NCBI GenBank assembly: GCA_963698885.1 | Contig: CAVOSJ010000002.1 | Coordinates: forward strand, 369,169-433,168 | Reading direction: 5' to 3' | DNA from: Nitrospirota bacterium | GTDB taxonomy: Bacteria > Nitrospirota > JACRHJ01 | DNA length: 64,000 nucleotides | Notes under the pieces: generated by a model | Told to the model about the DNA's origin: nothing | Databases searched by the model: none | What the model saw: only the letters and a program-made list of their open reading frames with translations | Program-made: the position numbers and the translations under genes | Shown: piece by piece, positions 8,300-63,742 of the stretch | Layout: each line of letters starts with the position of its first letter | Numbering within the stretch: position 1 is the first letter of the stretch

Positions 8300-8405
8300 T
8301 CTGATTTCTCTTTCCTGTTGCCAAGTAAAAAAAGACGGTTCAAAATGATAGCACTGTAGGGAAATTAATGCAACAGGAAGAGAGAAATTGTAATCCCCGC
8401 CGACC

Positions 8406-41423: not shown

Positions 41424-42899
41424 ATGCTGCGCGGCGGTTTGTCGACGTTGATCAGCTTGACCGTTATCTGCGTTGTTCTGTCCGCATGTTCAGTAGGACC
41501 TGATTATCGTCGCCCCGATCTCCCTGATGTGAAGCACTACACGCCGACCGAACTGCCGGAGACTACCGCTGCTTCCCCTGTAACGGGAGGCGAAGCACAG
41601 CGCTTCGTACTCGGACAGGAAATCCAAGCAGAGTGGTGGAATCTGTTCCATTCCGAAGCACTGGACGGTTTGATTCATCTGGCCCTGACGAAGAACCCTA
41701 CCCTTGAGGCTGCGAAGGCAAGGCTGAGAGAAGCGCAAGAGAATTGGCGAGCCGAAGCCGGATCGCTCTACCCGAGTGTTGACGCGAACGCATCGGCAGG
41801 GCGTCAAAAAATATCAGGTGCCTCGTTCGGTCAGCCCGGCGGCAGCTTCAGTCCCTTCAACCTTTTCAACGCCTCGGTAAATGTTACGTATTCGCTCGAT
41901 ATTTTCGGAGGCACGCGGCGGGAGTTGGAGGCCCTTCAGGCTCAGGTAGACTACGAGAGATTCCAGGTGGAGGCCGCCTATCTCTCGCTTACTGCCAATA
42001 TCGTCACTACCGCGGAGAAGGAGGCGTCGCTACGCGCGCAGATAAAGACGACTCAGGAGATAATGGCCATCCAGGAGAAAGAGCTTGAGCTTGTAAAAAA
42101 ACAGCATGAACTCGGAAGCGCGTCGCTTTCCGACGTGTACGCGCAGTACTCGCAACTCGCTCGCACAAAGACGACGCTCCCGCCTCTCGAAAAGGAGCTC
42201 GCATTCACACGCCACCAGTTGGCCGTGCTCGCGGGGCTGTTCCCCGAGAAGGCCGGCATGCTGCCCGAGTTCGACCTGGACTCCCAGCAGCTGCCGCGCG
42301 AGCTTCCCGTCAGCCTGCCTTCCACGCTGGCGCGGAACCGTCCGGACATCGCGGCGTCGGAGGCGCTCCTGCACGCGGCAAGCGCAAAGGTCGGCGTCGC
42401 GACGGCAGACCTCTACCCGAAGGTAACACTGACCGGGAGCTACGGGACGGAATCGGTGAAGCTGGAAAACCTTTTTTCTCCCGGGGCGGTGGTCTGGAGT
42501 ATCGGCGCGGGGCTTCTCCAGCCCGTGTTCCGGGGCGGCGAGCTCAGGGCAAAGAAGCGCTCAGCCGTGGCCGCGTATGACCAGGCGGAGGCGAACTACC
42601 GCGAGACCGTCTTCCAGTCGTTCAGGGAAGTGGCGGACGCACTCCGCGCGCTGGAGGACGACGCGCGCGCTCTCAAGGCGCAGTCGGAGGCAGAGACGGG
42701 GGCAAGACTGCTCCTCGACCTTACGCAAAGGCAGTTTAAGCTTGGCGCGGCAAACTACCTCTCGCTTTTGAACGCCCAGAGGGATTACCAGCTGGCGCGG
42801 ATGGGCCTCGTGCAGGCCGAGGCCGCGCGCTTCGCCGATACGGCCGCTCTTTTTCAGGCCATGGGCGGCGGGTGGCAGAAAGGAGCCGATCAGCCGTGA
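41424..42899 (+). CDS. RND efflux outer-membrane factor lipoprotein (NodT/OprM family)
   Basis: Start trimmed to MLRGGLSTLISLTVICVVLSACSVGPDYRRP (lipobox plus OMF N-terminal motif). Two coiled-coil/beta-barrel repeats. Confidence 0.85.
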   Translation: MLRGGLSTLISLTVICVVLSACSVGPDYRRPDLPDVKHYTPTELPETTAASPVTGGEAQRFVLGQEIQAEWWNLFHSEALDGLIHLALTKNPTLEAAKARLREAQENWRAEAGSLYPSVDANASAGRQKISGASFGQPGGSFSPFNLFNASVNVTYSLDIFGGTRRELEALQAQVDYERFQVEAAYLSLTANIVTTAEKEASLRAQIKTTQEIMAIQEKELELVKKQHELGSASLSDVYAQYSQLARTKTTLPPLEKELAFTRHQLAVLAGLFPEKAGMLPEFDLDSQQLPRELPVSLPSTLARNRPDIAASEALLHAASAKVGVATADLYPKVTLTGSYGTESVKLENLFSPGAVVWSIGAGLLQPVFRGGELRAKKRSAVAAYDQAEANYRETVFQSFREVADALRALEDDARALKAQSEAETGARLLLDLTQRQFKLGAANYLSLLNAQRDYQLARMGLVQAEAARFADTAALFQAMGGGWQKGADQP

Positions 42900-44011
42900 A
42901 GAAACGCATTATGTTCGCCATCCTGGGCCTGGCTGTCATCATCGCCGCGCTGGCGGTCATCAAGGCCTTGCAGATCCGGGCGATGGTCGAGCATGGCAAG
43001 CATTTCGTTCCTCCGCCCGAGACGGTAACAACGGCCAAGGCCAAGCCCGAATCTTGGGAGACGGCCCTGACAGCGGTCGGAACGTTGACCGCCGTCCAGG
43101 GGGTTAACGTTGCTGCGGAGCTGGCAGGGAAGGTCGTGGACATCGCCTTTAAGCCTGGATCGAGAGTGAAGAAGGGGGGCCTGTTGATTCGCCAGGACAC
43201 GAGTTCGGAAGAGGCTCAGCTCCCAGGCGCCGTGGCCCAGGTGAACCTTACGAAGACCGTTCTCGAACGCGACGGAAAGCTGCTGGCGGAGCAGATCATT
43301 TCTCAGGCCGACTACGACGCCGCTGTCGCCAGCCACAAGCAGGCTATTGCGCAGGCCGATTCTATACGCGCCACCATCGGCAAGAAGACAATCCGCGCCC
43401 CTTTCAGCGGCCGCATCGGCATCCGGCAGGTAAACCTCGGACAGACCCTGCGCGAAGGAGACCAGATCGTCACGCTGCAATCCCTCGATCCTATATATGT
43501 CAACTTCGCCCTTCCCCAGCAGCAGATTGCCAAATTGCGCCTTGGCCTGCCGACCCGGGTGACGTGCGATGCCCTGCCCGGGCTGGCGATTGAGGGACAA
43601 ATCACGTCCATAAATCCGCTGGTGGACGCCGACACTCGCAACATCCAGTTGCAGGCGACCGTGGCAAACCCGGCGGAGAAGCTCCTGCCCGGGATGTTCG
43701 TCAACGCGGCGGTCGGACTCCCGGTCCGGCAAGAGGTGCTTGTCATTCCTGCCACCTCCGTGCTTTACGCCCCCTACGGCGATTCAGTCTTCGTCGTCGA
43801 TGACGACAGGAAGGGAGGGAAGATGCTGCGGCAGCAGTTCGTGCGTCTGGGCGAGAATCGCGGCGACTTCATTGTCGTCGCCCACGGGCTGAAGGATGGG
43901 GAGAACGTTGTCAGCTCCGGCGTCTTCAAACTTCGAAACGGCCAGGCGGTGGTGGTCGATAACCGGCTCGTCCCGCAGTTCAAACAAAGCCCCAGACCCG
44001 AAAACAACTGA
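42896..44011 (+). CDS. RND efflux periplasmic adaptor (membrane fusion protein, AcrA-like)
   Basis: GTG start overlapping the OMF stop (gTGA); an ATG at 42872 is also possible. Biotinyl/lipoyl-like, beta-barrel and MP domains. Confidence 0.8.
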   Translation: MKKRIMFAILGLAVIIAALAVIKALQIRAMVEHGKHFVPPPETVTTAKAKPESWETALTAVGTLTAVQGVNVAAELAGKVVDIAFKPGSRVKKGGLLIRQDTSSEEAQLPGAVAQVNLTKTVLERDGKLLAEQIISQADYDAAVASHKQAIAQADSIRATIGKKTIRAPFSGRIGIRQVNLGQTLREGDQIVTLQSLDPIYVNFALPQQQIAKLRLGLPTRVTCDALPGLAIEGQITSINPLVDADTRNIQLQATVANPAEKLLPGMFVNAAVGLPVRQEVLVIPATSVLYAPYGDSVFVVDDDRKGGKMLRQQFVRLGENRGDFIVVAHGLKDGENVVSSGVFKLRNGQAVVVDNRLVPQFKQSPRPENN

Positions 44012-44014
44012 CCT

Positions 44015-47000
44015 ATGAAAATAACCGACCTGTTCATCCGCCGTCCCGTTCTGGCCCTCGTGGTCAACCTTCTTATCATCATCGGAGGTCTGCAAGCGAT
44101 CAGGACTATTAACGTCCGCCAGTACCCGCGCAGCGAAAACGCAGCGGTAACCGTCACGACCGTTTATACAGGTGCAAGCGCGGAGCTGGTGCGTGGATTC
44201 ATCACATCACCGCTTGAGCGAGCCATCGCCGCCGCCGACGGCATCGAGTACATGGAATCGCAGAGCACGCTCGGCCTCTCTACCATCAATGTGCGCCTCA
44301 GGCTCAACTATGATTCCACCAAGGCCCTGGCTGAAATCAGTTCCAAGGTAGATCAGGTGCGCCGCGACCTCCCCCCGGAAGCGGAGGTTCCGATCATCAA
44401 TATCGAATCAGCTGAAAGCCGGTTCGCCTCGGCCTATTTGAGCTTCAGTTCTGACCTGTTACAGCAGAACGAGATCACCGACTATTTGGTGCGCATCGTC
44501 CAGCCCCGCCTTTCCGCCATACCGGGTGTGCAGCGGGCCGACATTCTGGGTGCCCGCACTTTCGCTATGCGCGTCTGGCTCAAGCCCGACAGGATGGCGG
44601 CGCTCGACATCAGCCCGGCCCAGGTGCGCCAAGCCTTGGCCGCAAACAACTTCCTTGCCGCCCTTGGTAGAAGCAAGGGTGCGTTCATCCAAGTCAACCT
44701 CACCGCCGACACCGACCTCCACACAGTAGAAGAATTCAGACGCCTGGTGGTGCGCGAACGGAATGGGACAATCACCAGACTTGGCGACATAGCTGACGTG
44801 GTGTTAGGTGCCGAGGATTACGACGCCGAGGTACGTTTCTCCGGCCAGACCGCGGTCTTCATGGGGATCTGGCCGCTCCCCAACGCAAACTCCGTCGACG
44901 TCATCAAGAGGGTGAAGACGGAGATGGCCTCTATCCAGCGGGACCTGCCGGCAGGTCTCAAGGCCCGGGTAGCCTATGACGCCACAGACTACATTACGAC
45001 CGCCATCCGCGAGGTTCTCAAAACCCTCGGCGACACGCTGATAATCGTCATCATCGTCATATTCCTGTTCCTCGGTTCCTACCGTTCGGTCCTGATACCG
45101 GTGGTGGCGATCCCCTTGTCGCTAATCGGAGGCGTATTCCTGATGCAGGCCTTCGGTTTTACCCTGAACCTGCTTACCCTGTTGGCCATCGTCTTGTCGG
45201 TCGGACTGGTGGTCGACGACGCCATTGTGGTCGTGGAGAACGTGGAACGCCATATACGCGGAGGGCAAACGCCCTTAGAGGCGGCTCTGTCAGGCGCGAG
45301 GGAACTGGTCGGGCCTATCATTGCCATGACTGTCACCTTGGCGGCGGTCTACCTTCCCATCGGCCTGCAAGGAGGATTGACCGGCGCACTCTTCCGCGAG
45401 TTTGCCTTCACCTTAGCTGGAACGGTCGCCATTTCTGGAATCGTCGCACTGACACTTTCACCGGTCATGTCGGCCAGGCTGCTCAAGCCCGGCATCGAGG
45501 GGCGCGGCCTGGCCGGCCGCATCGCCCGTGACTTCGACCGCCTTAAAAACGGCTATGGCCGTCTTCTCGACTTCACCCTGGCGGCGCGTCCGGCGGTCTA
45601 CGCGGTCTGGATCGTGGCGTCCCTCGCAGCCGTGCCGATGTTCCTCATGTCCGCCAAGGAGCTGGCGCCGATGGAGGACCAGGGTGTTATCTTCGGCATT
45701 CTTGATGCTTCTGCCAACTCCACCCTCGACCAGAATAGCATCTTCGCCGCAGAGGTCAACCGGGTCTTTCAGAGTGTGCCGGAAACCGATTTCACGTTCC
45801 AGCTCACGTATCCCAACTCAGGTTTCGGCGGCATGGTCGTCAAACCGTGGGACAAACGCAAGCGCAACATCCTCCAGATCCTGCCCGAAGTCCAACAGAA
45901 GCTGCAGAAGATTCCCGGCATCCGGATCTTCCCGGTAACTCCGCCGGCCCTCCCTGGCGGCGGCGATTACCCGGTCGAATTCATCCTGGCATCTACGGCC
46001 GAATCAGGGCAGATACTGGAATTCGCCAACCAGTTACAGATGAAGGCTATGCAGAGCCACATGTTCGCCTTTCCCCCGGTTATCGATGTTAAGATAGACC
46101 AGCCCCAGTCCGAATATGTCATCGACCGCGACAAAGTGGCCTCGATGGGTCTCAACTTAGGGCAGGTCGGCGGCGACCTGAGCGCGCTAGTCGGAGGCGA
46201 CTACGTGAACCGTTTCGACATCTCGGGCCGCAGCTATAAGGTCATCCCGCAGATCCAGAGAGTTGGTCGCCTCAACCCCGAGCAGCTTAAGGACGTCTAT
46301 GTTTCAGGTCCGGGCGGCAACCTGGTCCCGCTCAGCACCGTGGCTACCCTGCGCGAATCGGTTGTCCCCCGGTCACTCAACCGGTTCCAGCAGCTGAACG
46401 CGGTCAAGATCAGCGGAGTGGCAGTCCGGCCGCTGGATGAGGTGTTGCGCTACATGGAAGACGAGTCGGCCAAGATTCTGCCCAAGGGCTATGTCATCGA
46501 CTATACCGGCGAGTCCCGTCAGCTGCGCACCGAGGGGCAAAAGTTTCTGCCTGCCTTCGCCCTGGCCATTGTCCTGATCTTCCTGGTGCTGGCGGCACAG
46601 TTCAATAGCTTCCGCGACCCGTTAGTCATTCTGGCAGGTTCGGTGCCGTTGGCCATGTTCGGCGCACTCATCTTCACCTTCCTGAAGATGCCCGACCCGA
46701 ACGTACATTTCTTCACCCATGGCTGGACCACGACACTCAACATCTACTCGCAGGTGGGGTTGGTGACCCTCGTAGGACTGGTGTCCAAAAATGGTATCTT
46801 GATCGTCGAATTTGCAAACAAGTTGCAGATTCAGGGTCTGTCGAAGATGGAGGCCGTGCGTCAGGCGGCCATGATTCGCCTGCGTCCGATCCTGATGGTC
46901 AGCGCCGCCACAATCGGTGGCCACTTCCCGCTGACGCTGGTCACCGGCGCCGGCGCCGCAGCCCGTAACTCGATTGGTCTGGTGCTGGTAGGCGGCATGT

Positions 47001-47128
47001 TCATCGGCACCTTATTTACCCTTTTTGTTATTCCGTCTATCTATATGCTTATCGCCCGCGATCACGGAAGAGACCGGGAGCAGGAGGCGAAGATTCAAAT
47101 AAAGGAGGAGTCGGGTACAAGCGGTTAG
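44015..47128 (+). CDS. RND multidrug efflux permease (HAE1, AcrB/MexB-like)
   Basis: 1037 aa, 12 TM helices, two large periplasmic loops, conserved AcrB blocks. Confidence 0.9.
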   Translation: MKITDLFIRRPVLALVVNLLIIIGGLQAIRTINVRQYPRSENAAVTVTTVYTGASAELVRGFITSPLERAIAAADGIEYMESQSTLGLSTINVRLRLNYDSTKALAEISSKVDQVRRDLPPEAEVPIINIESAESRFASAYLSFSSDLLQQNEITDYLVRIVQPRLSAIPGVQRADILGARTFAMRVWLKPDRMAALDISPAQVRQALAANNFLAALGRSKGAFIQVNLTADTDLHTVEEFRRLVVRERNGTITRLGDIADVVLGAEDYDAEVRFSGQTAVFMGIWPLPNANSVDVIKRVKTEMASIQRDLPAGLKARVAYDATDYITTAIREVLKTLGDTLIIVIIVIFLFLGSYRSVLIPVVAIPLSLIGGVFLMQAFGFTLNLLTLLAIVLSVGLVVDDAIVVVENVERHIRGGQTPLEAALSGARELVGPIIAMTVTLAAVYLPIGLQGGLTGALFREFAFTLAGTVAISGIVALTLSPVMSARLLKPGIEGRGLAGRIARDFDRLKNGYGRLLDFTLAARPAVYAVWIVASLAAVPMFLMSAKELAPMEDQGVIFGILDASANSTLDQNSIFAAEVNRVFQSVPETDFTFQLTYPNSGFGGMVVKPWDKRKRNILQILPEVQQKLQKIPGIRIFPVTPPALPGGGDYPVEFILASTAESGQILEFANQLQMKAMQSHMFAFPPVIDVKIDQPQSEYVIDRDKVASMGLNLGQVGGDLSALVGGDYVNRFDISGRSYKVIPQIQRVGRLNPEQLKDVYVSGPGGNLVPLSTVATLRESVVPRSLNRFQQLNAVKISGVAVRPLDEVLRYMEDESAKILPKGYVIDYTGESRQLRTEGQKFLPAFALAIVLIFLVLAAQFNSFRDPLVILAGSVPLAMFGALIFTFLKMPDPNVHFFTHGWTTTLNIYSQVGLVTLVGLVSKNGILIVEFANKLQIQGLSKMEAVRQAAMIRLRPILMVSAATIGGHFPLTLVTGAGAAARNSIGLVLVGGMFIGTLFTLFVIPSIYMLIARDHGRDREQEAKIQIKEESGTSG

Positions 47129-47398: not shown

Positions 47399-48262
47399 TC
47401 ACTTGTCCTTTATAGCCAGTGCCTGTTTGGCGACCGTCGAGACTTCTCCTATAGGCAGGATCACGGGCATCATGCCGAGCGCGTTCATTCCGCCGGATAA
47501 AAGTGAAACCATTCCGAACGACTTATCGTTAGTTTTCGTAAACCTAAGTAGAGAAAGGCCGACAACCTTCCCATCAAGGGAGAAAACAGGCGCCCCGAGC
47601 CCCGTTGCCAAAGTGCCGCTGTCGGCGACATAATACTTCCTCGGTATGGCGATTACGGCCTCAATGCGGCGCAGGGAAACGGTAGAGCTACGGCCGGCGG
47701 TCTTGTCAAGGCGACCCAGGACACATATTGTGTCAAGCACATCGGCCTTGCCGCTTCCCGAAATGTCGAGGGCGGCGATCGGATGGCTCAATGTTTCCGT
47801 CGGCCTTACAAATGCCAAGTCCAGGTCTGCGTCCCGTAGCACGATCTTGGCCGGTATTTCCCGTCCGTCTGGCAGGACCATCGTTATACTGGCGATACTG
47901 CTGTCTATATCCATCTGTGGGCCTTCCTTGGATGCCTTCAGTTTCTTTAAGAGCCCGCCGAATATCCTGGAGGGGTCTATGGAGGAGAAGGATAGTACGG
48001 ATAGCCCGGAGGGGTCTATAACGGTCGCCAGCGTTTCAACCTCGCTTTCCTCCTTTGACTGTTCGCTACCTCCTACTATAAAGCGCAACTTAATCGTTGC
48101 CTTTAACGCAATGACTGTGTCCGCATATTTACCAACAATAGCTTTTGCCGCCTCTTTTTCTTCAACTGCCTGCGCCGAGTGGGCTGTCAGGAACAAGGAA
48201 AATATGAAAATGAAGCAGACGGCCCGGACGGTGAAACAACCCCTGGCACTGGTATTATACAT
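47399..48262 (-). CDS. Secreted HtrA-like protease-domain homolog, predicted catalytically inactive
   Basis: Signal peptide. Trypsin-like fold. The catalytic Ser position GNSGGPL reads GLGAPVF, and there is no His in the TNxHV-equivalent block. Confidence 0.5.
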   Translation of the reverse strand: MYNTSARGCFTVRAVCFIFIFSLFLTAHSAQAVEEKEAAKAIVGKYADTVIALKATIKLRFIVGGSEQSKEESEVETLATVIDPSGLSVLSFSSIDPSRIFGGLLKKLKASKEGPQMDIDSSIASITMVLPDGREIPAKIVLRDADLDLAFVRPTETLSHPIAALDISGSGKADVLDTICVLGRLDKTAGRSSTVSLRRIEAVIAIPRKYYVADSGTLATGLGAPVFSLDGKVVGLSLLRFTKTNDKSFGMVSLLSGGMNALGMMPVILPIGEVSTVAKQALAIKDK

Positions 48263-48292
48263 TCCCGCTTCCTCCTTTTATTTTCAACAGGA

Positions 48293-50368
48293 TTACTCTG
48301 CGTCCGGCCACGCCGGTTCCATTTCGACAAACTGGGTATGGATGCCTCTCAGGATCTCGAACGAAGTGCTCTTAGGTTTACCGGCTGAAACTCGCTTCAT
48401 CTCTTTTTCAAATGAGACGGTGTCGGCAACAGGCCTGCCGTCTACGGCAAGGATAAGGTCGCCTATGGACAACCTGGCAAGCGAAGCCCAGCCCCCCTCG
48501 ATTACCGATTCGACCAGCACGCCTCCACTGTTGTTCTCCTGTATATCATCCAGGAAAGAGATGTCTCGTGCCGTGAATTCAAAGTTGTTGTCGGTATACC
48601 GCTTCATGTCCTTTGCCGACTTGGGAGATTGGACCAGGTGCGTTTCGACCGTTAACTTTTCTCTTCCTCTCAATATCTTGAGTTTGACCTTCGAACCGAT
48701 ACTGTATTGATGCAGCATTTCCTCCAGTACCTCCCCATCCTCCGCCGAGGACGGGCTTACGGACTCTTCGTTTACCGCGGTAATAATATCACCCACCAGC
48801 AGGCCGGTTTTTTCGGCAGTGCCCGAATAGACCCGGGTTATCCGCATACCCTGGACTTTGGGGTCGCCCAGACTCGTCGCGATATCTTTCGTCACTACCT
48901 GGGTTTCGATTGGAAGCCAGGACTTGCACGCGTCTACTCCCTGTTCTTCCGCAGCCTCCTTCTTCTTGAGATTTACAATAGTCAGGTAACGTCCTTTCTC
49001 CCTGTCGAAGGTTGCCAGGACCGGAACGGCCCCCACTTTGTTTCTCATAATCTCACGAGTCAGTTTTATGAGGGATTCGACGTTTCTGACGTCGGTATTG
49101 TTAACCCTGACGACCACGTCGCCCGCGGCAACCTTGGGTTCCGCCTCCCTGCATGAGCCACCCGGCCGGACACTAGTCACCAGTACACCATCCCGGCTCT
49201 CCCGTTCCATTTCTTTCGAGTCCATGTATGACAGGTTGCGGGCGGTCATCCCCCATTGAGACAGTTCGACACTCCTCGGCATGGTGTATTCTCTTTCCCG
49301 GGTGACCACGTGCAAGAGGAGTTCTTTCTCGCCACGTTGCACAACGGCCTCCACCGTCTCGCCTACGGGGATGTCCATTATGGTCTGGTTTAGGATAGGC
49401 ACTTCTTCCGGAAAGCGGGCGGTGACCTCCTTGCCGGCTATCGAGACCAGGATATCGCCCGGCAAAAAGCCCGCTTTTTCAGCCGGAGAGTCTTTCATAA
49501 CCCCGCTGATAAGGGCCCCTCTCTTCTGGTCCATATGCTTGAGGAGAGGCTGTATATCGAGACCGAGCCAGCTCCGGCTTACTTTCCCGGACCGTATAAG
49601 TTGATCAGCGACCTTTTTCGCCAGGTTGCCCGGTATGGCCCCGCTTATCCCGATGCTTATCTCATTAATCCCGACTATCTCTCCTCTCAGGTTGACGAGC
49701 GGCCCGCCGGAGTTCCCGCCGAAAATCTGCGCGTCGTGTCCTATCCAGCGCACTATGGAGCCGACGTCCTCGCCATCTAATATAAAACGGCTCCCCGTTG
49801 AGAAGTCCGGCATGACAACCTCGGCGTTGCTGACGATACCCATGGTCACGGACTGGGAAAGGGCAAAGGGGCTACCCATGGCCAGAACCCGGTCTCCCAC
49901 CCGGAGCATGGAAGAGTCACCGAATATCACGGCCGGGAACACCCTTTTATTATCGTTCCGCAATTTAATGACGGCTATGTCCGCAAGAGGATCGGTGCCA
50001 ATCAAGTCCGCAGCTATCTCGTCCTTATCCGATAATGTGCAGACTATCCGTCTGGCCTGCCCGGCAACATGATGGTTCGTAATCACGTAGCCGTCACTCG
50101 TAATGATGACGCCGCTGCCAAGGGTCCTGTACTTCACTTCGCGGCCGTTCTCGTATTTTACCGCCACGACCAATATCCGAACCAGCGAAGGTTTTACCCT
50201 CTGTATCGCGTCTCCAATCGCTTTTATCAGGACGCCAGGAGGGTTTTCTACATCAGGCGGCGAGAGGGTTCCCGATCCTTCGCTGTAGGCAAAAGAAGCG
50301 GCAAACAATGAAACGATGACGGTGCTTAAGCAGAAGATATATCTTATGAAGCGCCTGTTACTCGACAT
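48293..50368 (-). CDS. Periplasmic serine endoprotease of the DegP/HtrA family with extended multi-PDZ C-terminus
   Basis: Catalytic His in VITNHHVAG, Asp in DIAVIKL, Ser in GGNSGGPLVN. 691 aa, which implies 3-4 PDZ domains. Confidence 0.85.
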   Translation of the reverse strand: MSSNRRFIRYIFCLSTVIVSLFAASFAYSEGSGTLSPPDVENPPGVLIKAIGDAIQRVKPSLVRILVVAVKYENGREVKYRTLGSGVIITSDGYVITNHHVAGQARRIVCTLSDKDEIAADLIGTDPLADIAVIKLRNDNKRVFPAVIFGDSSMLRVGDRVLAMGSPFALSQSVTMGIVSNAEVVMPDFSTGSRFILDGEDVGSIVRWIGHDAQIFGGNSGGPLVNLRGEIVGINEISIGISGAIPGNLAKKVADQLIRSGKVSRSWLGLDIQPLLKHMDQKRGALISGVMKDSPAEKAGFLPGDILVSIAGKEVTARFPEEVPILNQTIMDIPVGETVEAVVQRGEKELLLHVVTREREYTMPRSVELSQWGMTARNLSYMDSKEMERESRDGVLVTSVRPGGSCREAEPKVAAGDVVVRVNNTDVRNVESLIKLTREIMRNKVGAVPVLATFDREKGRYLTIVNLKKKEAAEEQGVDACKSWLPIETQVVTKDIATSLGDPKVQGMRITRVYSGTAEKTGLLVGDIITAVNEESVSPSSAEDGEVLEEMLHQYSIGSKVKLKILRGREKLTVETHLVQSPKSAKDMKRYTDNNFEFTARDISFLDDIQENNSGGVLVESVIEGGWASLARLSIGDLILAVDGRPVADTVSFEKEMKRVSAGKPKSTSFEILRGIHTQFVEMEPAWPDAE

Positions 50369-50429
50369 AATTGTATAGTCCTTTTAAAACGCGCTGCTAA
50401 AGTTAATATCCGGTTCTTTCAACGTCTAT

Positions 50430-52514
50430 CTACGTTGCACTGGCCGGACTGGTGGTGTCGCCTGAGTGCGCCTCTATTTCCTTTTTCATACCAGGCTGTC
50501 TGCCAGTTATAATCTGAGACATATATGCTGATAACAAACCACCCACGCCGTCCCCGCCCTGCACAAGAAGGTCGGGGGTTATTTTTATATTGCCTGCTGA
50601 AATCTGCTTGGCTATCTCTATGGAAGTAACAGCCTGCTGGCCGAGGGCCTTGTTCTGCAACTCGTATGCCTCGGCTGTGGATTTGCCCACGGCCAGTATC
50701 CTGGTCGCCTCCGCTTCGCCTTTAGCCTTTATCCCGGCAGCTTCGCCTTGGGCCTTCAACCTTATGCTTTCCCCTTCGCCTTCCGCGTTCTTTATGGCCA
50801 TCTGTTTGTTCTGTTCGGCCACCTTGACGCCTATCTCGGCCGTGACGAGCGCGGTCTGCTGGTTGGCCTCGGCCCGGGTCTTTTCGGTCGCTATGCGCGT
50901 CTGCTCGGCCTGTTGCTCCGCCTCGTACATTGCGCGCTGCTGTTCGGCGATTATCTTCTTGGTTTGCGTGTCCATGAGTTCCTGCGGCAGGTTTATCTGG
51001 CATATAAGCACGGACACGCACTCCACATGGTACTTCGCAAGCTCCAGCTTTGTACGCTCCTCTGCCTTCCGCTGTTCCTCCTGGCGGTCCTGCATGAAGT
51101 TCATCGCGGACGTGGAAGATGCCTGGTTGCGGAAACTCGAATCTATCATAGGATGTATGACATGCAGTATCAGGTTGTCAATCGAGCCTATCTTTGAGAC
51201 CATGTATGGCGCCTGGTCTGGGCGGACCCTAACCACCACTTTGACCGAGACGTCTATCGGGAACCCGTCTTTAGATATTACCTTGAGAGGGTCGAACCGG
51301 GTCTCCTGCGAGTTGTCCCAGTCTATTGTGATGTTGGTTGTGTCCAGGATGTAGGCTATGTATGCCCGCCTGTTCAGGTAGTACCTCCCGGGGCCGGCCA
51401 CCTCTTGCTGTATGCCCCGAAATCCCTTGGGCACTACATAGCGCTCGAAGCCCTTGCGTAGACGAGTCTCTATCTTCTCCGCAGTCTCATCGCTGATCTG
51501 CTCGTCTTCTACCCGTACTTCAGCAGTTTCTGCTATCGCGGTTGGCTCTGCCCCGACGTTCGATACTAAGACAGCGACCTGCCCCCGCTCTATCACTGCC
51601 ACGTCATCAAGCTCTATTTTGAACATCAGCGGGTTGATGTAATAGGTGCCGGGTCTGAGTACATCGAACTGCGGGCCCCTCTCGCCTCCCTCGGCCAGAA
51701 AACTTGACGCATCTTGGTAATCGTTATGGTTTTTCACGGACTTCGCTACGTACTCGCTTTCCGGTAGGGGGTCGCCGTCGAGGGCGGTTACAAGCCCGAC
51801 TTTGTTTGCGGGTATTATGGTTGCATCATAGACCTCGACTTTGAAGAGAGCGGTGTTTATACGGTAAGTGCCGGGCAGGAGGATGTCTATCTGGGGGCCT
51901 TTCTGCCCCTGGTTGTTCAGGAAGGCCTGGCCGTCCTCGAATTTCGAGTGTCCCTCGACATGCTTGGCGAGCAGCCTGCCCACCGGTATAGGCTGCCCGT
52001 CCATTGAGGTCACCAGCCCTACCTTACCCTTGTCTATAATTATCGCGTTGCCCTTTATCATTTTGAAGAGTACAGGGTTGATCCTGTAAGTACCAGGCGG
52101 CAGCATCTGTATTTGTGGCCCCTTCTCGCCCCCGTGGGCCAGGAAGGCCTCTCCGTCCTGAAACGAGTTATGCCCCTCGACCACCCTGGCGAATATTTTT
52201 CCCGGAGGCACGGGGTTGCCGTCAATCGACTCCATCAGCCCTACCTCCAACTCCCCGATGGAGGTAAACGGGTACTTAGTCGCGCGGTACAGGAAAGGGA
52301 TAAGGATGTGAAGGCCCGGACCCAGGGTCTTCGCCTGGATGCCTACCTCGCCTTCCATGGCCACGACGCGCCCCTGCGGCATGCCCCGTCCGATGTATCT
52401 CCTCTCCAGCACCACCAGTTCCCTGCCGCCGACAACGACAACGGACATATAAATCAGGAATAATGCCGCAAGGCCGATCATTGCGCAAACTGCATACACA
52501 AAGTACGCTTCCAT
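50430..52514 (-). CDS. Flotillin-like SPFH/band-7 family protein with three ~55-aa tandem repeats and a long E/A/Q-rich coiled-coil
   Basis: N-terminal TM. SPFH N-terminal motif GPGLHILIPF. Repeats GNPVPPGKIFARVVEGHNSFQDGEAFL... (x3). C-terminal EA-rich flotillin-type region. Confidence 0.75.
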   Translation of the reverse strand: MEAYFVYAVCAMIGLAALFLIYMSVVVVGGRELVVLERRYIGRGMPQGRVVAMEGEVGIQAKTLGPGLHILIPFLYRATKYPFTSIGELEVGLMESIDGNPVPPGKIFARVVEGHNSFQDGEAFLAHGGEKGPQIQMLPPGTYRINPVLFKMIKGNAIIIDKGKVGLVTSMDGQPIPVGRLLAKHVEGHSKFEDGQAFLNNQGQKGPQIDILLPGTYRINTALFKVEVYDATIIPANKVGLVTALDGDPLPESEYVAKSVKNHNDYQDASSFLAEGGERGPQFDVLRPGTYYINPLMFKIELDDVAVIERGQVAVLVSNVGAEPTAIAETAEVRVEDEQISDETAEKIETRLRKGFERYVVPKGFRGIQQEVAGPGRYYLNRRAYIAYILDTTNITIDWDNSQETRFDPLKVISKDGFPIDVSVKVVVRVRPDQAPYMVSKIGSIDNLILHVIHPMIDSSFRNQASSTSAMNFMQDRQEEQRKAEERTKLELAKYHVECVSVLICQINLPQELMDTQTKKIIAEQQRAMYEAEQQAEQTRIATEKTRAEANQQTALVTAEIGVKVAEQNKQMAIKNAEGEGESIRLKAQGEAAGIKAKGEAEATRILAVGKSTAEAYELQNKALGQQAVTSIEIAKQISAGNIKITPDLLVQGGDGVGGLLSAYMSQIITGRQPGMKKEIEAHSGDTTSPASAT

Positions 52515-53004
52515 ATTTATCCCCTTTTATCGATATGATGGCCAGAAAAGCTTCTCTTTGATAAAATTTGGTTCCTGACAGTGCAAGACTACATCAAGTT
52601 ACTGTACCGGTCAATAATAATCCCCTGATTTCCAAGGGCAATTATCTGTTGACAGGCATGCAATAATGCCCACTTTTGCTGTTAGATTTCACTTGAGACC
52701 TTACGGGAAAAGAGATTTTCATTTGAACAGAACACATGCGTCTTTTCAAGAATTTACAGATGCGGGGGAGGCAAATTTGGCTCTAACTTTCTCTATTAGC
52801 TTAATAGAATTACACGTGGTTACAATGGTAGACTATGGATGTTCAATTTGAAAAACGCAAATTCTTTACATAGATAATTCAATGTGTTGTGAAGTTTATC
52901 AAATCAGAATTCCGAGGTTTATATTCTCCAATCACCACCTTTTCCCATGTGGTCCAAGGCTTCTCTCATCAACACGATAGTAAACGAATTCATATCTTTA
53001 TGCT

Positions 53005-54372
53005 TCACTGCGTCAGCCTTAGCAGCTGACTTGCTATCTCGTCAAAGGCCTGTTGGAGTTCCGAGTCATCCGCCGCAAAGGCATAAATCCCGGTCGGTTG
53101 GTCAGCGCCATGGTTGGGCGCCGAGGGGTCGTTGGCCATGTTCTTAAGGATGGCGTCGCCTGTTTCGTGGTTCCCCCAGCTTTTCTGTGAGGTCAGGAGT
53201 GCGTCCGGGCCGTTCAGGCCGAGCGTGTAGACGTATATGCCCGACGCTCTGGCGTTGTTCGCCATCTCTTCCGGGAGGTTCCTTGCCGCATTGTTCACGT
53301 CTTCAAAGCCTTTATTATTGTCATTCACGTAAGTTGCATTAACGGGCCTCGCGGCCATGCCCGTCCCCGACGGCGGGCCGAGCACGTGGTACAGGCCGTC
53401 GCCTACACCGGAGCCCAGGTTGAAATATGCAGGCAGCGTCGTTACATACGAGTAAATTGGGTTTTGGATGTACCCCGACAGCGTAGTGTCAAGTACGCCT
53501 GTCTTATAAAGGCCAAAGGGGTCTCCGGGGGTGCCGTCGACGGTACAAATAACCCCTGTTTTTTGTATAGACGGTTTCCATACGAAAGTGGACGAGAAGG
53601 AGTTTGGCGAGCCGTCGGAGAAGAACACTATGACCCTGCAGCTTGAACGGCTCGACGCGGGTATACTGTCAAGCTGGGCCCTGGCATCCCAGAAGGCCTC
53701 GGTGAAGTTGGTATGGCCGTTGAAGGTCATATTATTTATGTCGTTCACTATTTGAGTTTTATTAAACCCCCTTGTTGAGGTACTTATTGGGTCCTTGATA
53801 ATGGCGCCCTCGGCGAAGAGCACCAGGCCCACCCTGTCCGAGGTTGCATTGAATCTGTTGATGAACGATACAGCCGCCGCCTTCAGAGCCGGGTTGTCGT
53901 TGCCCGACCTGATCAGCGAGCTTGTGGTGTCGATGACAAAGACCATGTCGAGGTCCTTCTTGACTGCCTGCGCCGTGGAGCTCGCGTTCACCCTATTTAG
54001 ACCTACGATCTGCATGAAAAATGTTGGCGCCGTCGCGCTTGCGGACACGGTGACCTGTATCTGCCCCGGACCGGGGGTGTTGGGCGAGACGTTTATTGTC
54101 GGGGCGGAGGGGGTGGAATTGAGGTATCCTGCGGGGTAATTGGATTTAAAACGCGCCGTGCCAGCGGCTATTGCGGCTGCATAGCCACCGGAGCTGTCGC
54201 CAGTCGCGTTGGCGGCCGCCAGGGCGGCCGCGTCCATGGCGCTACTCAGCTTGGCCTTTACCCCGTAGGCGATCCCCCCGTCTATGGCTAATCCTGCAAT
54301 GGCCAAAAGAACTACCATTGACAGGGCTAAGAAGACTAATACCTGCCCATCTTCTCTTCCTTTTGTTTGCAT
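53005..54372 (-). CDS. TadE/TadG-like N-terminal domain + von Willebrand factor A domain protein (Flp-pilus-assembly TadG-like)
   Basis: N-terminal TM with TadE-like LALSMVVLLAIAGLAIDGG. vWA MIDAS DMVFVIDTTSSL...FFSDGSPN. Confidence 0.65.
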   Translation of the reverse strand: MQTKGREDGQVLVFLALSMVVLLAIAGLAIDGGIAYGVKAKLSSAMDAAALAAANATGDSSGGYAAAIAAGTARFKSNYPAGYLNSTPSAPTINVSPNTPGPGQIQVTVSASATAPTFFMQIVGLNRVNASSTAQAVKKDLDMVFVIDTTSSLIRSGNDNPALKAAAVSFINRFNATSDRVGLVLFAEGAIIKDPISTSTRGFNKTQIVNDINNMTFNGHTNFTEAFWDARAQLDSIPASSRSSCRVIVFFSDGSPNSFSSTFVWKPSIQKTGVICTVDGTPGDPFGLYKTGVLDTTLSGYIQNPIYSYVTTLPAYFNLGSGVGDGLYHVLGPPSGTGMAARPVNATYVNDNNKGFEDVNNAARNLPEEMANNARASGIYVYTLGLNGPDALLTSQKSWGNHETGDAILKNMANDPSAPNHGADQPTGIYAFAADDSELQQAFDEIASQLLRLTQ

Positions 54373-54767
54373 GGTTCTCCTTTTTGCACTTTAAAATCTC
54401 GCAACGGTATAAATCTTTCACTAATTTTTTTTGTTCATAATGTGCGGTCTTCCGATAATAAAATATCAGAGATAGTCATTATTGTCAAATTCACATTCCT
54501 ATATAATACTGGTTATTATGATGATTTGATAAGGTCCGAATGCGTAGTTATTATATGAGCTAACATCATAGCAATGCTAAATTGAATAAGACCCACCCGA
54601 GTAAGAACCATTTGAATCAGGACCATTTTGAATTAGCACCAGTCCAGCCTATCCTGGAAGCTTCAAAACACCCGGCGATTGCGCCGCTTTTCAGTTGACT
54701 TTACATGCCAGGGTTGTTACCATTTTACACGACTTCCCAATTGCCCGACCCCCTTTTCGGCGGCATT

Positions 54768-54947
54768 ATGAGACCGAAAGAACTCTGGATTTTCCTCTTT
54801 TTCACAGGGACATTGGCCCTTGGCTGGCCGTTTCTTGAGATATTTGCCTCAAAGCTCCCCATCTACCTTTTTACCGCCTGGATCTGCATAATAGCATTAA
54901 TCTATATTGTCGTAAAATACGCGGCAAAAGAGGAAGACGAGGGTTAA
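54768..54947 (+). CDS. DUF4212 small membrane protein (SSS-transporter accessory subunit-like)
   Basis: Start trimmed to MRPKELWIFLFF. Two TM helices. Lies immediately upstream of an SSS-domain protein, as DUF4212 typically does. Confidence 0.55.
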   Translation: MRPKELWIFLFFTGTLALGWPFLEIFASKLPIYLFTAWICIIALIYIVVKYAAKEEDEG

Positions 54948-57878
54948 TTGATCGGTTCCGGCATCCTCTTCGCAATAATCCTGGCCTATCTCATGTTGCT
55001 CTTCGTCCTGGCATATTTTGCCGAGACGATGGAAAAACAGGGTAAAAGCATCGCATCAAATCCATACGTCTATTCCCTCTCGTTCGCCGTTTACTGCACC
55101 TCCTGGACCTTCTACGGCAGCGTTGGAATGGCCGCGACTTCCGGCCTTTCATTCCTTACTATCTACCTTGGCCCCACCTTGATGGCTACGCTCTGGTGGC
55201 TGGTACTGCGCAAAATCGTCGTGATAGCCAAGGAACAGGGTATAACAACTATTTCAGACTTCATCGGTTCCCGGTACGGAAAATCACTGTCCCTGTCCGC
55301 GCTGGTAACGGTCGTCGCGGTGGTGGGCATAATGCCTTACCTGGGCCTCCAGATAAAGTCCATCATCAGCACCTACCAGATAATCTCCGGACAGACGGAG
55401 CCAAGCTTGACTGCGGGCTGGTTCATCGTCTTGTTCGTCGGGATATTTGCCATAATCTTCGGGGCGAGAAAACTGGACTCTTCCGAGCGGCACGAGGGGC
55501 TTATATTCGCCATAGCGTTTGAGTCCCTGATCAAGCTTGTCGCATTCGTGGCGGCGGGCGTATTCGTCACCTACGGGCTATTCGACGGCTTCGGCGATAT
55601 CTTCGGACACATCGGGAAAATTTATCCGCGCCTTCTTTCAATCGGCGCCGGCGGCTCCACAAGCCTCACGGAATGGACCTCGCTTACATTCATGTCCATG
55701 ATGGCGATAATGTTCCTGCCCAGGCAGTTCCACGTAGCCGTAGTGGAAAACTCAAGCAAAAAGCATATCCTGAAGGCGATGTGGCTGTTCCCGCTTTACC
55801 TCTTTATTATAAATATATTCGTACTGCCGGTCGCATTCGGCGGGCTCCTTCGGGGCGGGACGCCGGCTCAGGCGGACAGCTTCGTCCTGTCCTTGCCACT
55901 CTCCCAAGGGAAATCAGCCCTGGCGCTGCTGGTTTTCCTTGGCGGCTTCTCCGCCGCGACAGGGATGATAATAGTGGAGTCCCTGGCGCTATCCACGATG
56001 GTGATGAACAGCCTGGCCATGCCTTTTCTGATAAGGTTCAACCGCTTTCGCAGTTTCCCGTCCATAGTGCTGAATACAAAGCGTCTTGTCATCCTCGGGT
56101 GCGTATTCATCGGGTATCTCTTCGCCGTATCGATAGGCAGGATATATTCCCTGGCGGACATGGGCCTTAACTCATTTGAGGCCGCGACTCTATTCGCGCC
56201 GTCTCTGCTCATAGGGCTCTACTGGAAGGGAGGGAACAAAAAAGGCGCGGCTGCCGGATTTGTGGGCGGCTTTATCGTCTGGTTTTATACCCTTCTCCTG
56301 CCGGAGTTTCTGAAGGCGGGCGTAATCCACTCGGAGCAGTTAAAGCAATTATTCGCCACCTCGGCATTTAATCCCGCCGGCCTTTTCGGGCTTAAAGGCC
56401 TGGACCGCTGGAGCCACTCCCTTTTCTGGAGCATGTTCATAAATCTCGGTCTCTATTTCGGCGTATCGATATTCACGAAACAGTCGCAGGAGGAGGAGAA
56501 GCAGGCGCTGATATTCGTGGAGTCGGTAAAGATCGGAGGGGCGGAAGGCGGGCAGGCGCGCGGCCTCCAGACGGTGGACGAGATAAGGGACCTCCTGGGG
56601 CGCTATATAGGACGCACTGAAGCGGCGGCGGCGCTGGAAGGCTTCATTGTAAGCCGGGGCATAGACAAATCCGCCATGCAAAAAGAAGAGGTCCTGAAGC
56701 TGCGGGACGAGGCGGAGAGGATTCTCTCAGGGGCCCTGGGCTCCGCCATAGCCACGCTTATCCTCCGGAAAAAGCTTGTAATGACGGAAGAGCTGTCGAG
56801 TTCCATACGCCAGATAAGCCATACCCTGAAACTTTCGCGTGAGAAACTGGAGGAAGCTAACAGGGAGCTTAACTTCCTGAAGGAGTTCAGCCAGAATATA
56901 ATCGAAAGCGTGCCGCAGGGTATCGCCACTATGGACCGCGATTTCAAGATTACATCCTGGAACAGGGGGATGGAAAACCTGACGGATGTAAAAAGGGAAA
57001 ATGCGCTGGGAAGGAGCGTGCAGGAATTTCCCATATGCCTGGGGCCCGGAACACCCCCCGGGATGCAGGGAGGCGAGCATATATGCGACACAAAGCCCGG
57101 TTATACCTTGAAAGTATCGTCCTCTCCGTTCAAGGGCCCGCAAGGAGGCTACGTCCTGATGATAGAGGACATTACCGAGAAGAAGCGCCGGGAGAGCGAG
57201 CTTTTGCAGGCCAGCAAATTCGCCAGCATCGGAAAGCTTACCGCGGGGATCTCGCACGAGATAGGGAACCCGCTTGCCTCGATATCCTCGCTCGTGCAGG
57301 AGATACAGGAGGTGGGACAGCCCGAGTTCACCAGCGAGGCACTGGATATAATCAACCACCACATCGAGAGGATTGTCCGCATCGTGCGGAGCCTTGGCGA
57401 TTTCGCAAGGCTTTACAGCCCTGAGAAAATCCCGTCCAACATTGCCGAAGTGCTTGACAGCACCCTGAACCTTACCCGGTATGACAAGAAGTTCAAGAAG
57501 ATAGAGATAATGAAAGACATAGAATTAACCGGACAGATAAAGATGAACCCGGACCAGATACAGCAGGTCTTTTTAAACCTGATATTAAATGCTCTGGATG
57601 CGATGCCGGACGGCGGCAGGCTCACGATAACGGTGAAGGACGCGGGATCTGACGTAATCATAATATTCAGCGATACGGGGATCGGGATGGACAAGGATGC
57701 CGTGGACAGGATATTCGATCCGTTCTATACGACGAAATCGCCCGGAAAGGGCACCGGCCTCGGGATGAGCATCTGCTGGGGGATAATAAACGAGCACGGC
57801 GGCACAATCAGTGTCGAGAGCAAAAAGGGGCGCGGGAGCACCTTTACCATTAGGCTTCCGAAGAAAAAGGAGGAGTAA
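54948..57878 (+). CDS. Hybrid sensor: N-terminal sodium:solute symporter (SSS, ~13 TM) domain fused to PAS, HisKA and HATPase_c (CrbS/CbrA-type histidine kinase)
   Basis: TTG start. SSS-like TM core. PAS region MDRDFKITSWNRGMENLT. H-box ISHEIGNPL. N, G1 and G2 boxes (LNALDAMPDGG, DTGIGM, GTGLGMSI). Confidence 0.85.
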   Translation: MIGSGILFAIILAYLMLLFVLAYFAETMEKQGKSIASNPYVYSLSFAVYCTSWTFYGSVGMAATSGLSFLTIYLGPTLMATLWWLVLRKIVVIAKEQGITTISDFIGSRYGKSLSLSALVTVVAVVGIMPYLGLQIKSIISTYQIISGQTEPSLTAGWFIVLFVGIFAIIFGARKLDSSERHEGLIFAIAFESLIKLVAFVAAGVFVTYGLFDGFGDIFGHIGKIYPRLLSIGAGGSTSLTEWTSLTFMSMMAIMFLPRQFHVAVVENSSKKHILKAMWLFPLYLFIINIFVLPVAFGGLLRGGTPAQADSFVLSLPLSQGKSALALLVFLGGFSAATGMIIVESLALSTMVMNSLAMPFLIRFNRFRSFPSIVLNTKRLVILGCVFIGYLFAVSIGRIYSLADMGLNSFEAATLFAPSLLIGLYWKGGNKKGAAAGFVGGFIVWFYTLLLPEFLKAGVIHSEQLKQLFATSAFNPAGLFGLKGLDRWSHSLFWSMFINLGLYFGVSIFTKQSQEEEKQALIFVESVKIGGAEGGQARGLQTVDEIRDLLGRYIGRTEAAAALEGFIVSRGIDKSAMQKEEVLKLRDEAERILSGALGSAIATLILRKKLVMTEELSSSIRQISHTLKLSREKLEEANRELNFLKEFSQNIIESVPQGIATMDRDFKITSWNRGMENLTDVKRENALGRSVQEFPICLGPGTPPGMQGGEHICDTKPGYTLKVSSSPFKGPQGGYVLMIEDITEKKRRESELLQASKFASIGKLTAGISHEIGNPLASISSLVQEIQEVGQPEFTSEALDIINHHIERIVRIVRSLGDFARLYSPEKIPSNIAEVLDSTLNLTRYDKKFKKIEIMKDIELTGQIKMNPDQIQQVFLNLILNALDAMPDGGRLTITVKDAGSDVIIIFSDTGIGMDKDAVDRIFDPFYTTKSPGKGTGLGMSICWGIINEHGGTISVESKKGRGSTFTIRLPKKKEE

Positions 57879-59233
57879 TGGCGGGCACGATACTGATAGT
57901 TGACGACGAGGAGACCTTGCGGGAGTCCATGGCGCGGCTCCTTACGCGAGAGGGCTATTCGGTAAGCACGGCCGGCACGGGAGAAGAGGCCATGGAGGCG
58001 CTCAAAAATTCCGCGTTCGACCTGGTAATCTCGGACATCTTCCTGCCGGGGATAGACGGTATAGAGGTACTCCGCCGGCTAAGGGAAAAAAAACCCGACC
58101 AGCTGGTGATACTGATGACGGCCTATGCCTCCCTGGAGACGGCGGTGGATGCGCTGCGGGCCGGGGCATATGACTACATCATGAAGCCCATAATCCATGA
58201 GGAGGTGAAGCTCCTCATAAGGAGGGCGCTCAGGCAGCAATCGCTCATGTCGGAGAACAGCCTGCTCCGCAAACAGATAGAGAGAGAATACGACTTCAGC
58301 CACATCATCGGCGTCTCGCCCAGCACCAAAAAGGTACTGGAAGAGGTAACCAAAATCGCCGACGCCAGGAGCAGCGTGCTTATCCTTGGCGAGACGGGGA
58401 CAGGAAAGGAACTTATCGCACGCGCGATCCATTTCAACAGCCGCCGGAGAGAAAAGGCCTTTGTGCCGATAAACTGCTCCGCCATCCCGGACACGCTGCT
58501 CGAGTCCGAGTTGTTCGGGCATGTGAAAGGCGCCTTTACCGGGGCCATGACCGCAAAAAAAGGACTCTTCGAGGAGGCGGCGGGCGGCACGGTTTTCTTA
58601 GACGAGATAGGGGAGATGAGCGTGATGCTCCAGTCAAAGCTGCTTCGGGTACTGGAAGACCAGGAGGTCCGTCCCGTGGGCGGGATACAGTCCACAAAGG
58701 TGGACTTGAGGTTCATCATGGCTACTAACAAAGACCTCCAGAAGGCCGTGCGGACACGGACGTTCAGGGAAGACCTCTTCTACAGGATCAATACAATAAA
58801 TATCAGCCTCTTTCCTCTCCGGGAGCGGCAGGAGGACATACCGCTCCTCGCCAGGCATTTTCTGGCACGGCTTGGAGCGGAGTTTGGAAAGCCGGTCAAA
58901 GCCATCTCCGACGACACCATCGCCTTGTTACTTGACTACAGTTGGCCCGGCAATATCCGGGAGCTTAGAAATATAATAGAGCGGGCGGTGCTGATTGCCG
59001 ATTCCGATATCATAACCCCCGAACACCTGCCCGAGAACATGCGTCAGAAAAATCCAGCCATGCTGACTGACTCTGTGGACAGGGCACTCTCGATAGAGGA
59101 ATATATAAAGGCCGTCATAACGCGATACCAGGACAGGTTGAGCGAGCAGAAGATTGCGGAGCTTTTAGGTATTACCAGGAAATCTCTCTGGGAGAAGCGT
59201 AAGAGATGGGATATCCGCCGAAACCGTGAATAA
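57878..59233 (+). CDS. Sigma-54-dependent response regulator (NtrC family: receiver + AAA+ + HTH)
   Basis: Receiver DDEE...DLVISD. AAA+ Walker A GETGTGKE and GAFTGA motif. ESELFGH. C-terminal Fis-type HTH. 1-nt overlap with the kinase stop (TAATG). Confidence 0.9.
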   Translation: MAGTILIVDDEETLRESMARLLTREGYSVSTAGTGEEAMEALKNSAFDLVISDIFLPGIDGIEVLRRLREKKPDQLVILMTAYASLETAVDALRAGAYDYIMKPIIHEEVKLLIRRALRQQSLMSENSLLRKQIEREYDFSHIIGVSPSTKKVLEEVTKIADARSSVLILGETGTGKELIARAIHFNSRRREKAFVPINCSAIPDTLLESELFGHVKGAFTGAMTAKKGLFEEAAGGTVFLDEIGEMSVMLQSKLLRVLEDQEVRPVGGIQSTKVDLRFIMATNKDLQKAVRTRTFREDLFYRINTINISLFPLRERQEDIPLLARHFLARLGAEFGKPVKAISDDTIALLLDYSWPGNIRELRNIIERAVLIADSDIITPEHLPENMRQKNPAMLTDSVDRALSIEEYIKAVITRYQDRLSEQKIAELLGITRKSLWEKRKRWDIRRNRE

Positions 59234-59461
59234 ATGTAACGTTAAGTAACAATCAAGTTTAAACCTCTGTTACAATTCGTAATCGACATCTAACCTCCTG
59301 AATTAGCTAAATTTTTAAATCTCTCGCACTTTCCCTTGCGCTACTTTAAGTAACGCACGCTTTGACTGGTTAGCAAGCCGCTTACATCAACCCTCCCTTT
59401 CAAAAATAATATTAGCTAATTAAATCAAAGATTTCCATTAGTTAATATAACGCCGTTATAT

Positions 59462-59480
59462 TCTGGCATTCTTGTTGCTA
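59462..59480 (+). promoter_or_regulatory. Sigma-54 (-24/-12) promoter
   Basis: cTGGCATtcttgTTGCTa matches TGGCAC-N5-TTGC(A/T), ~70 nt upstream of the satP-like gene. Confidence 0.6.
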
Positions 59481-59548
59481 TCTGTATATTCAGAGGCGGT
59501 TTTTTTCTACAACCGCTGGGATTAATTTTTAAAAACAGGAGGAGCAAA

Positions 59549-60130: not shown

Positions 60131-60158
60131 TCGAGAACGAGAAAGGGAGGAAAATCTA

Positions 60159-61650: not shown

Positions 61651-61765
61651 AGGGAAGCCTGATGAGGAAATCATAATTTAGTTGTAAATGGGACGGCCTT
61701 GCGATAGTTTTTTTTGCAAGGCCGTCCTCCCGCGTTTAAACCTGTGAAGACTCATGGAGGTAGTG

Positions 61766-63742
<1,977 letters not shown>

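Follow-up and report, generated by a model that had tools for sequence, protein, structure and literature searches.

Gene content of the locus

We characterized a 64,000-nucleotide stretch of a Nitrospirota genome (assembly GCA_963698885.1, contig CAVOSJ010000002.1, forward-strand positions 369,169–433,168; hereafter the window, numbered from its first nucleotide), in which two adjacent genes encode a four-PDZ HtrA/DegQ-type serine protease (48293–50368; 691 amino acids (aa)) and a secreted, PDZ-less protein of HtrA fold that appears to be its non-catalytic partner (47399–48262 in the open reading frame (ORF) list; 287 aa; hereafter the pseudoprotease). Both lie on the minus strand, as do all features described below unless stated otherwise. 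Upstream of the pair are genes for a flotillin/SPFH protein (50430–52514; 694 aa) and a TadG-like vWA protein (53005–54372; 455 aa). A preliminary description of the sequence had presented these as four consecutive minus-strand genes with short gaps; the ORFs lie where it had placed them, but only the HtrA–pseudoprotease and flotillin–HtrA gaps are short (30 and 61 base pairs (bp)), the vWA and flotillin genes being 490 bp apart.

A predicted non-catalytic HtrA homologue

The pseudoprotease begins with a signal peptide (residues 1–32, ending in AQA; 48167–48262; read from the sequence and presumably cleaved), and its only Pfam match was Trypsin_2 (E 6e-10). BLASTP alignment paired its TGLGAPVF segment with GNSGGPLV of the adjoining HtrA, which places Leu222 (47597–47599) at the position of the catalytic serine, and a profile–profile comparison of the two families with hhalign gave the same register (probability 94.8%, E 1e-8, 17% identity). 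The hhalign comparison also paired D148 with the catalytic aspartate of HtrA and left the catalytic histidine without a counterpart. The hallmark segment TVIDPSGLSVLSFSS (residues 80–94; 47981–48025), which replaces the His-bearing strand of active HtrAs in the alignments, contains no histidine, and the single histidine of the mature protein (H160) is not conserved. D148, the retained triad aspartate, is part of an acidic motif, D144-x-D146-L-D148 (47819–47833), that is invariant in the pseudoprotease family; D144 and D148 are conserved in active HtrAs too, whereas D146 is family-specific.

The AlphaFold2 (AF2) model of the 287-aa protein was confident (pLDDT 90, pTM 0.85) and retrieved the HtrA protease domains of DegP, DegS and DegQ in Foldseek (E ~5e-12), the closest folds being Deg5, DegQ and MamO. 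Sequence-only searches of the PDB gave weak matches (E 0.003–0.04), and fold comparison was needed to place the protein. The protein thus has the HtrA/chymotrypsin double beta-barrel fold, and retains the beta-barrel cleft and an L1-like motif (G223-x-P225-x-F227), and lacks both the serine and the histidine expected of an active S1C serine protease. Because the serine is replaced by leucine and no histidine is available, it is predicted to be unable to act as a serine protease, in agreement with the preliminary description, which had noted an HtrA homologue without catalytic serine and histidine.

The loss of both residues is family-wide. At the serine-equivalent column, the 101 family members drawn from genomic loci carry mostly leucine (66) or methionine (17) and, more rarely, threonine, isoleucine, valine or lysine (the six commonest residues), and 147 diverse representatives sharing ≤50% identity carry L, M, I, V, P or F, with serine in 2 of the 147. 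The histidine-equivalent column is leucine in 130 representatives and histidine in 3. Half of the 101 members have no histidine at all in the mature region, 52 of the 147 representatives have none in the core, and no column is rich in histidine, whereas D144, D146 and D148 are all present in 101/101 loci and in at least 138/147 representatives. Hydrophobic N-terminal segments followed by AxA occur throughout the family alignment. The substitutions are ancestral and maintained, and not a sequencing error; an intact triad emerging after error correction, which the preliminary description had named as the outcome that would overturn its reading, was not seen. Public annotation (NCBI, JGI) nevertheless labels family members such as P0040, P0043, P0050 and P0004 'serine protease' or 'S1-C subfamily serine protease', and neither Pfam nor NCBIfam has a model that separates the family from active enzymes.

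The 30-bp spacer between the HtrA and pseudoprotease genes (48263–48292) contains a strong ribosome-binding site, AAAGGAGG, placed 8 nt upstream of the ATG start codon of the pseudoprotease gene. The two proteins are presumed to be periplasmic. A 354-aa ORF on the opposite strand (47646–48710, plus), antisense to the pseudoprotease and HtrA genes and rich in Ser, Pro and Arg, is most likely a shadow ORF.

An HtrA protease with a duplicated PDZ tandem

The 691-aa protein has a signal peptide or anchor (residues 1–29; 50282–50368; read from the sequence, with a hydrophobic helix at residues 6–26 in the AF2 model and cleavage presumed), followed by a protease domain (residues 44–260; 49589–50239) with an intact triad of H100 (50069–50071), D130 (49979–49981) and S220 (49709–49711), coordinates that were verified by translation. 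The three triad columns are invariant across all complete orthologues from 83 loci. Pfam detected Trypsin_2 (E 8e-27) and four PDZ stretches, and the AF2 model (pLDDT 83) showed a protease and four separate PDZ-like domains, settling at four the three to four PDZ domains anticipated in the preliminary description. PDZ1 (residues 265–357) and PDZ2 (365–468) together span 48965–49576, with boundaries from Pfam and AF2, and are separated by a disordered linker (residues 470–482) from PDZ3 (485–578) and PDZ4 (588–685; together 48314–48916), which were delimited by profile match, cross-hits and AF2.

A PDZ3–PDZ4 profile matched the DegP/DegQ PDZ1–PDZ2 tandem over its full length (E 4e-24 to 1e-17), and the PDZ1–2 and PDZ3–4 regions hit one another at 26–30% identity. 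The extra pair is therefore a duplicate, a second copy of the DegP-type PDZ1–PDZ2. The top Foldseek matches were DegQ and DegP (29–31% identity, E 1e-30), confined to the first ~440 residues. TIGR02037 (degP_htrA_DO) scored E 2e-111 and 373 bits, under its 416-bit cut-off, and the protein falls short of all curated NCBIfam cut-offs, every equivalog model included. With its triad and with four PDZ domains where HtrA/DegP/DegQ proteases (MEROPS S1C) have one or two, the 691-aa protein belongs to the HtrA family but departs from its canonical architecture.

The HtrA gene is preceded by a 61-bp leader (50369–50429) that is conserved in the closest relative (L172, about 7835–7896) despite different upstream genes, and DNA similarity between the window and L172 begins directly after the flotillin stop codon, which together mark the 5′ boundary of the mobile HtrA unit. 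No convincing sigma-70, sigma-54 or extracytoplasmic function (ECF) promoter spacing was seen in the leader by eye, and a consensus scan found none.

Conservation of the HtrA–pseudoprotease pair

Scanning one genome per species with the pseudoprotease alignment recovered relatives in at least 514 species-level genomes from at least eight phyla. Taxonomy was taken from the best 80 of these, which included Nitrospirota, Omnitrophota, Verrucomicrobiota, Acidobacteriota, Hydrogenedentota, Stahlbacteria/WOR-3, Armatimonadota, Hebobacteria, some Proteobacteria and Desulfobacterota, the closest of the 80 being Nitrospirota (66%). In an exhaustive profile search the family comprised 793 clusters (50% identity) at E ≤ 1e-30, rising to 1,565 at E ≤ 1e-10.

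Gene order was compared by tblastn at 87 loci anchored on the pseudoprotease, 84 of them informative, with a neighbour radius of 8 kb. A four-PDZ HtrA gene lay directly upstream on the same strand in 82 of the 87; the order was reversed in one (L086, 112–2956; a metagenome-assembled genome (MAG) of Desulfosudis), the HtrA was absent from one, and three had no upstream DNA. The pair was adjacent in 83 of the 84 informative loci, with an estimated median gap of ~4 bp; gene calls in five genomes from public assemblies gave gaps of 37, 2, 179, 11 and −10 bp. The reverse test, a metagenome scan anchored on PDZ3–PDZ4, found a pseudoprotease directly downstream of all 16 four-PDZ orthologues (16/16), whereas none of the ordinary two-PDZ DegP/Q matches had such a partner.

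Mean pairwise identity among 79 complete pairs was 0.66 in the protease domain, 0.49–0.52 in the PDZ pairs and 0.47 in the pseudoprotease, which is therefore as constrained as the partner's functional PDZ domains. Its pairwise identities correlated with those of the HtrA domains (r 0.87–0.90) as closely as the HtrA's own domains correlate with one another. The pseudoprotease is thus under purifying selection and, judging from sequence and synteny, the conserved unit is a two-gene system of HtrA and pseudoprotease. Clustering of the flanking ORFs of 101 loci revealed no third gene conserved across phyla; the flanking genes are lineage-specific, for example MsrB in Acidobacteriota and DUF362, Rho and CoaE in Verrucomicrobia.

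A gene for a cytoplasmic-type MsrB (methionine-R-sulfoxide reductase) follows the pair in ~25 Acidobacteriota loci and one from Hydrogenedentota, either immediately behind it, at gaps of −1 to 132 bp, or with a single gene in between (for example, L033 3292–3703, L054 8739–9141, L074 8812–9211 and L042 10534–10948). This placement could be a matter of lineage synteny, or it could hint at a connection with oxidative protein damage. A candidate fusion of HtrA and pseudoprotease (a 961-aa ORF in a long-read Acidobacteriota MAG; L073, 5862–8747) was set aside as most likely an assembly indel because a frameshift disrupts the C-terminus of the HtrA and the signal peptide of its partner survives in the middle of the protein. 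Four long family members (P0242, P0301, P0314 and P0327) were likewise considered as fusions of HtrA and partner and were rejected, as they contain only Trypsin_2. P0242 (615 aa) is twice as long as other members; it contains two Trypsin_2 stretches, is matched four times by the pseudoprotease profile and may consist of two dead domains fused in tandem.

Flotillin, vWA and other neighbouring genes

The 694-aa flotillin matched Pfam Band_7/SPFH over residues 366–537 (E 1e-23), in line with membership of the SPFH/flotillin (Band 7) family. It is repeat-bearing, as the preliminary description had noticed, with three 74-aa repeats (residues 90–163, 164–237 and 238–311; 52026–52247, 51804–52025 and 51582–51803, respectively) that share 46–56% identity (z about 40 against shuffles). 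Each repeat resembles an extra N-terminal SPFH hairpin (G-P-Q..L.PGTY.IN). There are more than 5,000 homologues, annotated SPFH/YqiK, in a family of ~687-aa proteins. Members from Nitrospirota, Ignavibacteria, Bacteroidales, Geobacter and a betaproteobacterium are still 72–75% identical, an unusually high level for proteins of different phyla. The flotillin had also been described as standing without the usual NfeD partner, and no NfeD-like ORF of an SPFH–NfeD operon adjoins it in the window or its homologues in L091 and L174.

The 455-aa protein had been described as a membrane-anchored TadE/G-like protein with a vWA metal-ion-dependent adhesion site (MIDAS), and both parts were borne out: it matched Pfam Tad (E 3e-8) and VWA (E 5e-13) and carries a MIDAS-like D-T-T-S-S motif, a DxTxS variant, consistent with a TadG-like vWA protein. 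No tad pilus genes were present in the flanks examined. The 490 bp between the vWA and flotillin genes are rich in A and T and free of ORFs of ≥70 aa.

Neither gene travels with the protease pair. No flotillin or vWA homologue was found within 8 kb of the pair in the 87 loci, and in the closest relative (L172 and L173; pair 79–84% identical) the upstream gene, 490 bp away, encodes an alcohol dehydrogenase. A 97%-identical flotillin (L174) follows kdp genes and an 81%-identical one (L091) lies among sensor genes, both with no HtrA nearby, and on contig L090 a flotillin and the pair are both present and non-adjacent. The flotillin and vWA genes are thus independent neighbours of the pair, found beside it in this genome only.

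On the other side of the pair, a resistance–nodulation–division (RND) efflux operon (41283–47128, plus; OEP outer-membrane factor, HlyD-type adaptor and AcrB-type pump) is convergent with the pseudoprotease gene, facing its 3′ end across 270 bp. Divergent from the vWA gene is a five-gene cluster (54705–63742, plus) for a small membrane protein, a sensor kinase with a fused sodium:solute-symporter-like domain, a sigma-54 activator of NtrC type, a porin and an acetyl-CoA synthetase, which we take to resemble CrbS/CrbR- or CbrA-type control of acetate use. Rfam detected no RNA family in the window, and PADLOC returned no defence-system match beyond generic protease similarity.

A two-component model and its alternatives

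The locus probably encodes a two-component periplasmic HtrA system in which the pseudoprotease serves as a non-catalytic subunit. The upstream gene would supply an active DegP/DegQ-type protease with an additional PDZ1–PDZ2-type tandem, and the downstream gene, translated from its own ribosome-binding site, would supply a secreted partner that joins the protease stoichiometrically. The pseudoprotease may dock on PDZ3–PDZ4 and so rebuild, in trans, a second and inactive DegP-like protomer, with the usual HtrA trimer contacts as a further or alternative route of joining. The resulting particle would contain equal numbers of live and dead protease domains, the dead ones scaffolding or gating assembly and tuning activation. 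The preliminary description had proposed that the pseudoprotease acts as a regulatory or adaptor subunit of the HtrA. Comparative genomics strongly supports its functional tie to the HtrA, through near-universal adjacency in both directions together with the family-wide loss of serine and histidine, whereas the adaptor role, the best supported of the possible ones, is inferred, as are the physical association, the docking site and any regulatory effect. Three precedents lend it support by analogy: the dead MamO activates MamE (PMC4794232), the degenerate protease domain of DEG7 mediates trimerisation (PMC3194040), and the PDZ-less Deg5 forms 1:1 hetero-oligomers with Deg8 (PMC4877387). A more far-reaching version, which we regard as possible but doubtful, is that the pair represents an ancient, obligately hetero-oligomeric HtrA class in which a trimer of dead domains, held by PDZ3–PDZ4, nucleates or gates a half-active cage; such a system would be a split and permuted counterpart of DEG7/Nma111, conceivably tied to its origin.

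Several observations weigh against a subunit role. The C-terminus of the pseudoprotease is variable in the family alignment and offers no obvious PDZ ligand, one locus (L085, 8001–8786; Verrucomicrobiia) lacks an HtrA in the 8 kb upstream of its pseudoprotease, and another (L080; Armatimonadota) has two tandem pseudoproteases after the HtrA (7259–7918 and 8001–8780). No natural HtrA–pseudoprotease fusion was found among the family members examined, nearly all carrier genomes are MAGs, and the tight pairing would be compatible with a dedicated substrate, an inhibitor or a hand-over chaperone too.

That last point is the basis of the nearest alternative, in which the pseudoprotease is tied to the protease without being a stable subunit, acting either as a holdase that hands over clients or as a pseudo-substrate, inhibitor or pro-factor cleaved by the HtrA. 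HtrAs themselves show chaperone activity (reviewed in PMC4877387), and the retained cleft and G223-x-P225-x-F227 motif would suit such a role, as would the same pairing and co-inheritance. We consider this unlikely: docking is the simpler explanation because the PDZ3–4 tandem strictly co-occurs with the pseudoprotease, and the two models are otherwise computationally inseparable. It is improbable that the pseudoprotease has instead been put to a new use, for instance to bind metals or cations with its invariant acidic cluster (E135, D144, D146 and D148), much as the repurposed protease domain of MamO binds transition metals, given that there is no di-histidine motif, that many members have no histidine in the core, and that only D146 and E135 are new, D144 and D148 being shared with active HtrAs. 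Such an activity would also leave the strict pairing with a four-PDZ HtrA unexplained, and it could coexist with a subunit role.

The preliminary description had combined all four genes into a module for a membrane microdomain plus protein quality control or scaffolding; in such a module the flotillin would serve as a membrane scaffold for the proteases. The genes share a strand, the 61-bp flotillin–HtrA gap has no terminator-like site on that strand, so that read-through is possible in this genome, and SPFH proteins are known partners of membrane proteases, for example HflK/C with FtsH. The synteny of the 87 loci and of the closest relative contradicts this module: flotillin and vWA homologues are absent near the pair, an alcohol dehydrogenase gene takes their place in that relative, the flotillin orthologues (97% and 81% identical) sit beside kdp and sensor genes, the L090 contig keeps flotillin and pair apart, the vWA gene is 490 bp off, and no third gene is conserved across phyla. 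We regard it as very improbable. Finally, the public 'serine protease' annotation might suggest that the 287-aa ORF derives from an active protease, either as a duplicate in decay or through a sequencing artefact; this is almost certainly wrong, given the same substitutions in hundreds of independent genomes and metagenomes, purifying selection equal to that on functional PDZ domains, the strong ribosome-binding site, the signal peptide and the confident fold prediction.

Comparison with known HtrA systems

In the literature searched, neither the pairing nor any bacterial HtrA with four PDZ domains is described, and only DEG7/Nma111 and MamO came up. Over its first ~440 residues (protease, PDZ1 and PDZ2), the 691-aa protein is like DegP/DegQ of Escherichia coli and Legionella in sequence and fold, but those enzymes have two PDZ domains, form homo-oligomers and have no dedicated dead partner. 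MamO, whose repurposed protease domain binds transition metals at a di-His site, also carries a TauE transporter domain and occurs only in magnetosome islands, whereas the pseudoprotease is a small soluble protein without a His motif, is partnered by a four-PDZ HtrA and occurs in many non-magnetotactic phyla. With no conserved histidine, no extra domain and no mam genes nearby, it does not belong to the MamO family. In the Deg5–Deg8 pair of the Arabidopsis thylakoid lumen, Deg5 keeps its triad, Deg8 has one PDZ domain and the two nuclear genes are unlinked.

The parallel with the same parts list is DEG7 of plants and its fungal counterpart Nma111p/Ynm3p, which likewise combine one active and one degenerate protease domain with four PDZ domains, having arisen by duplication of a protease–PDZ1–PDZ2 unit (PMC3194040). 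In DEG7, one eukaryotic polypeptide carries the domains in the order Prot-PDZ-PDZ-Prot*-PDZ-PDZ (Prot*, degenerate protease domain), whereas here Prot-PDZ1–4 is followed by a separate bacterial Prot* gene with its own signal peptide; the dead domain of DEG7 has lost the aspartate that is invariant in the pseudoprotease. With its split genes and different order, the pair falls outside DEG7/Nma111, although it may work like DEG7. Bacterial HtrAs are regarded as homo-oligomers, and a preprint states that all known ones are. Hundreds of the dead proteins are at present annotated 'serine protease'. A live/dead HtrA pair that is strictly conserved in many environmental phyla would be a natural system for learning how an ATP-independent protease of quality control is governed by a pseudoprotease subunit. 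It would also give bacteria a parallel to both DEG7/Nma111 and Deg5/Deg8.

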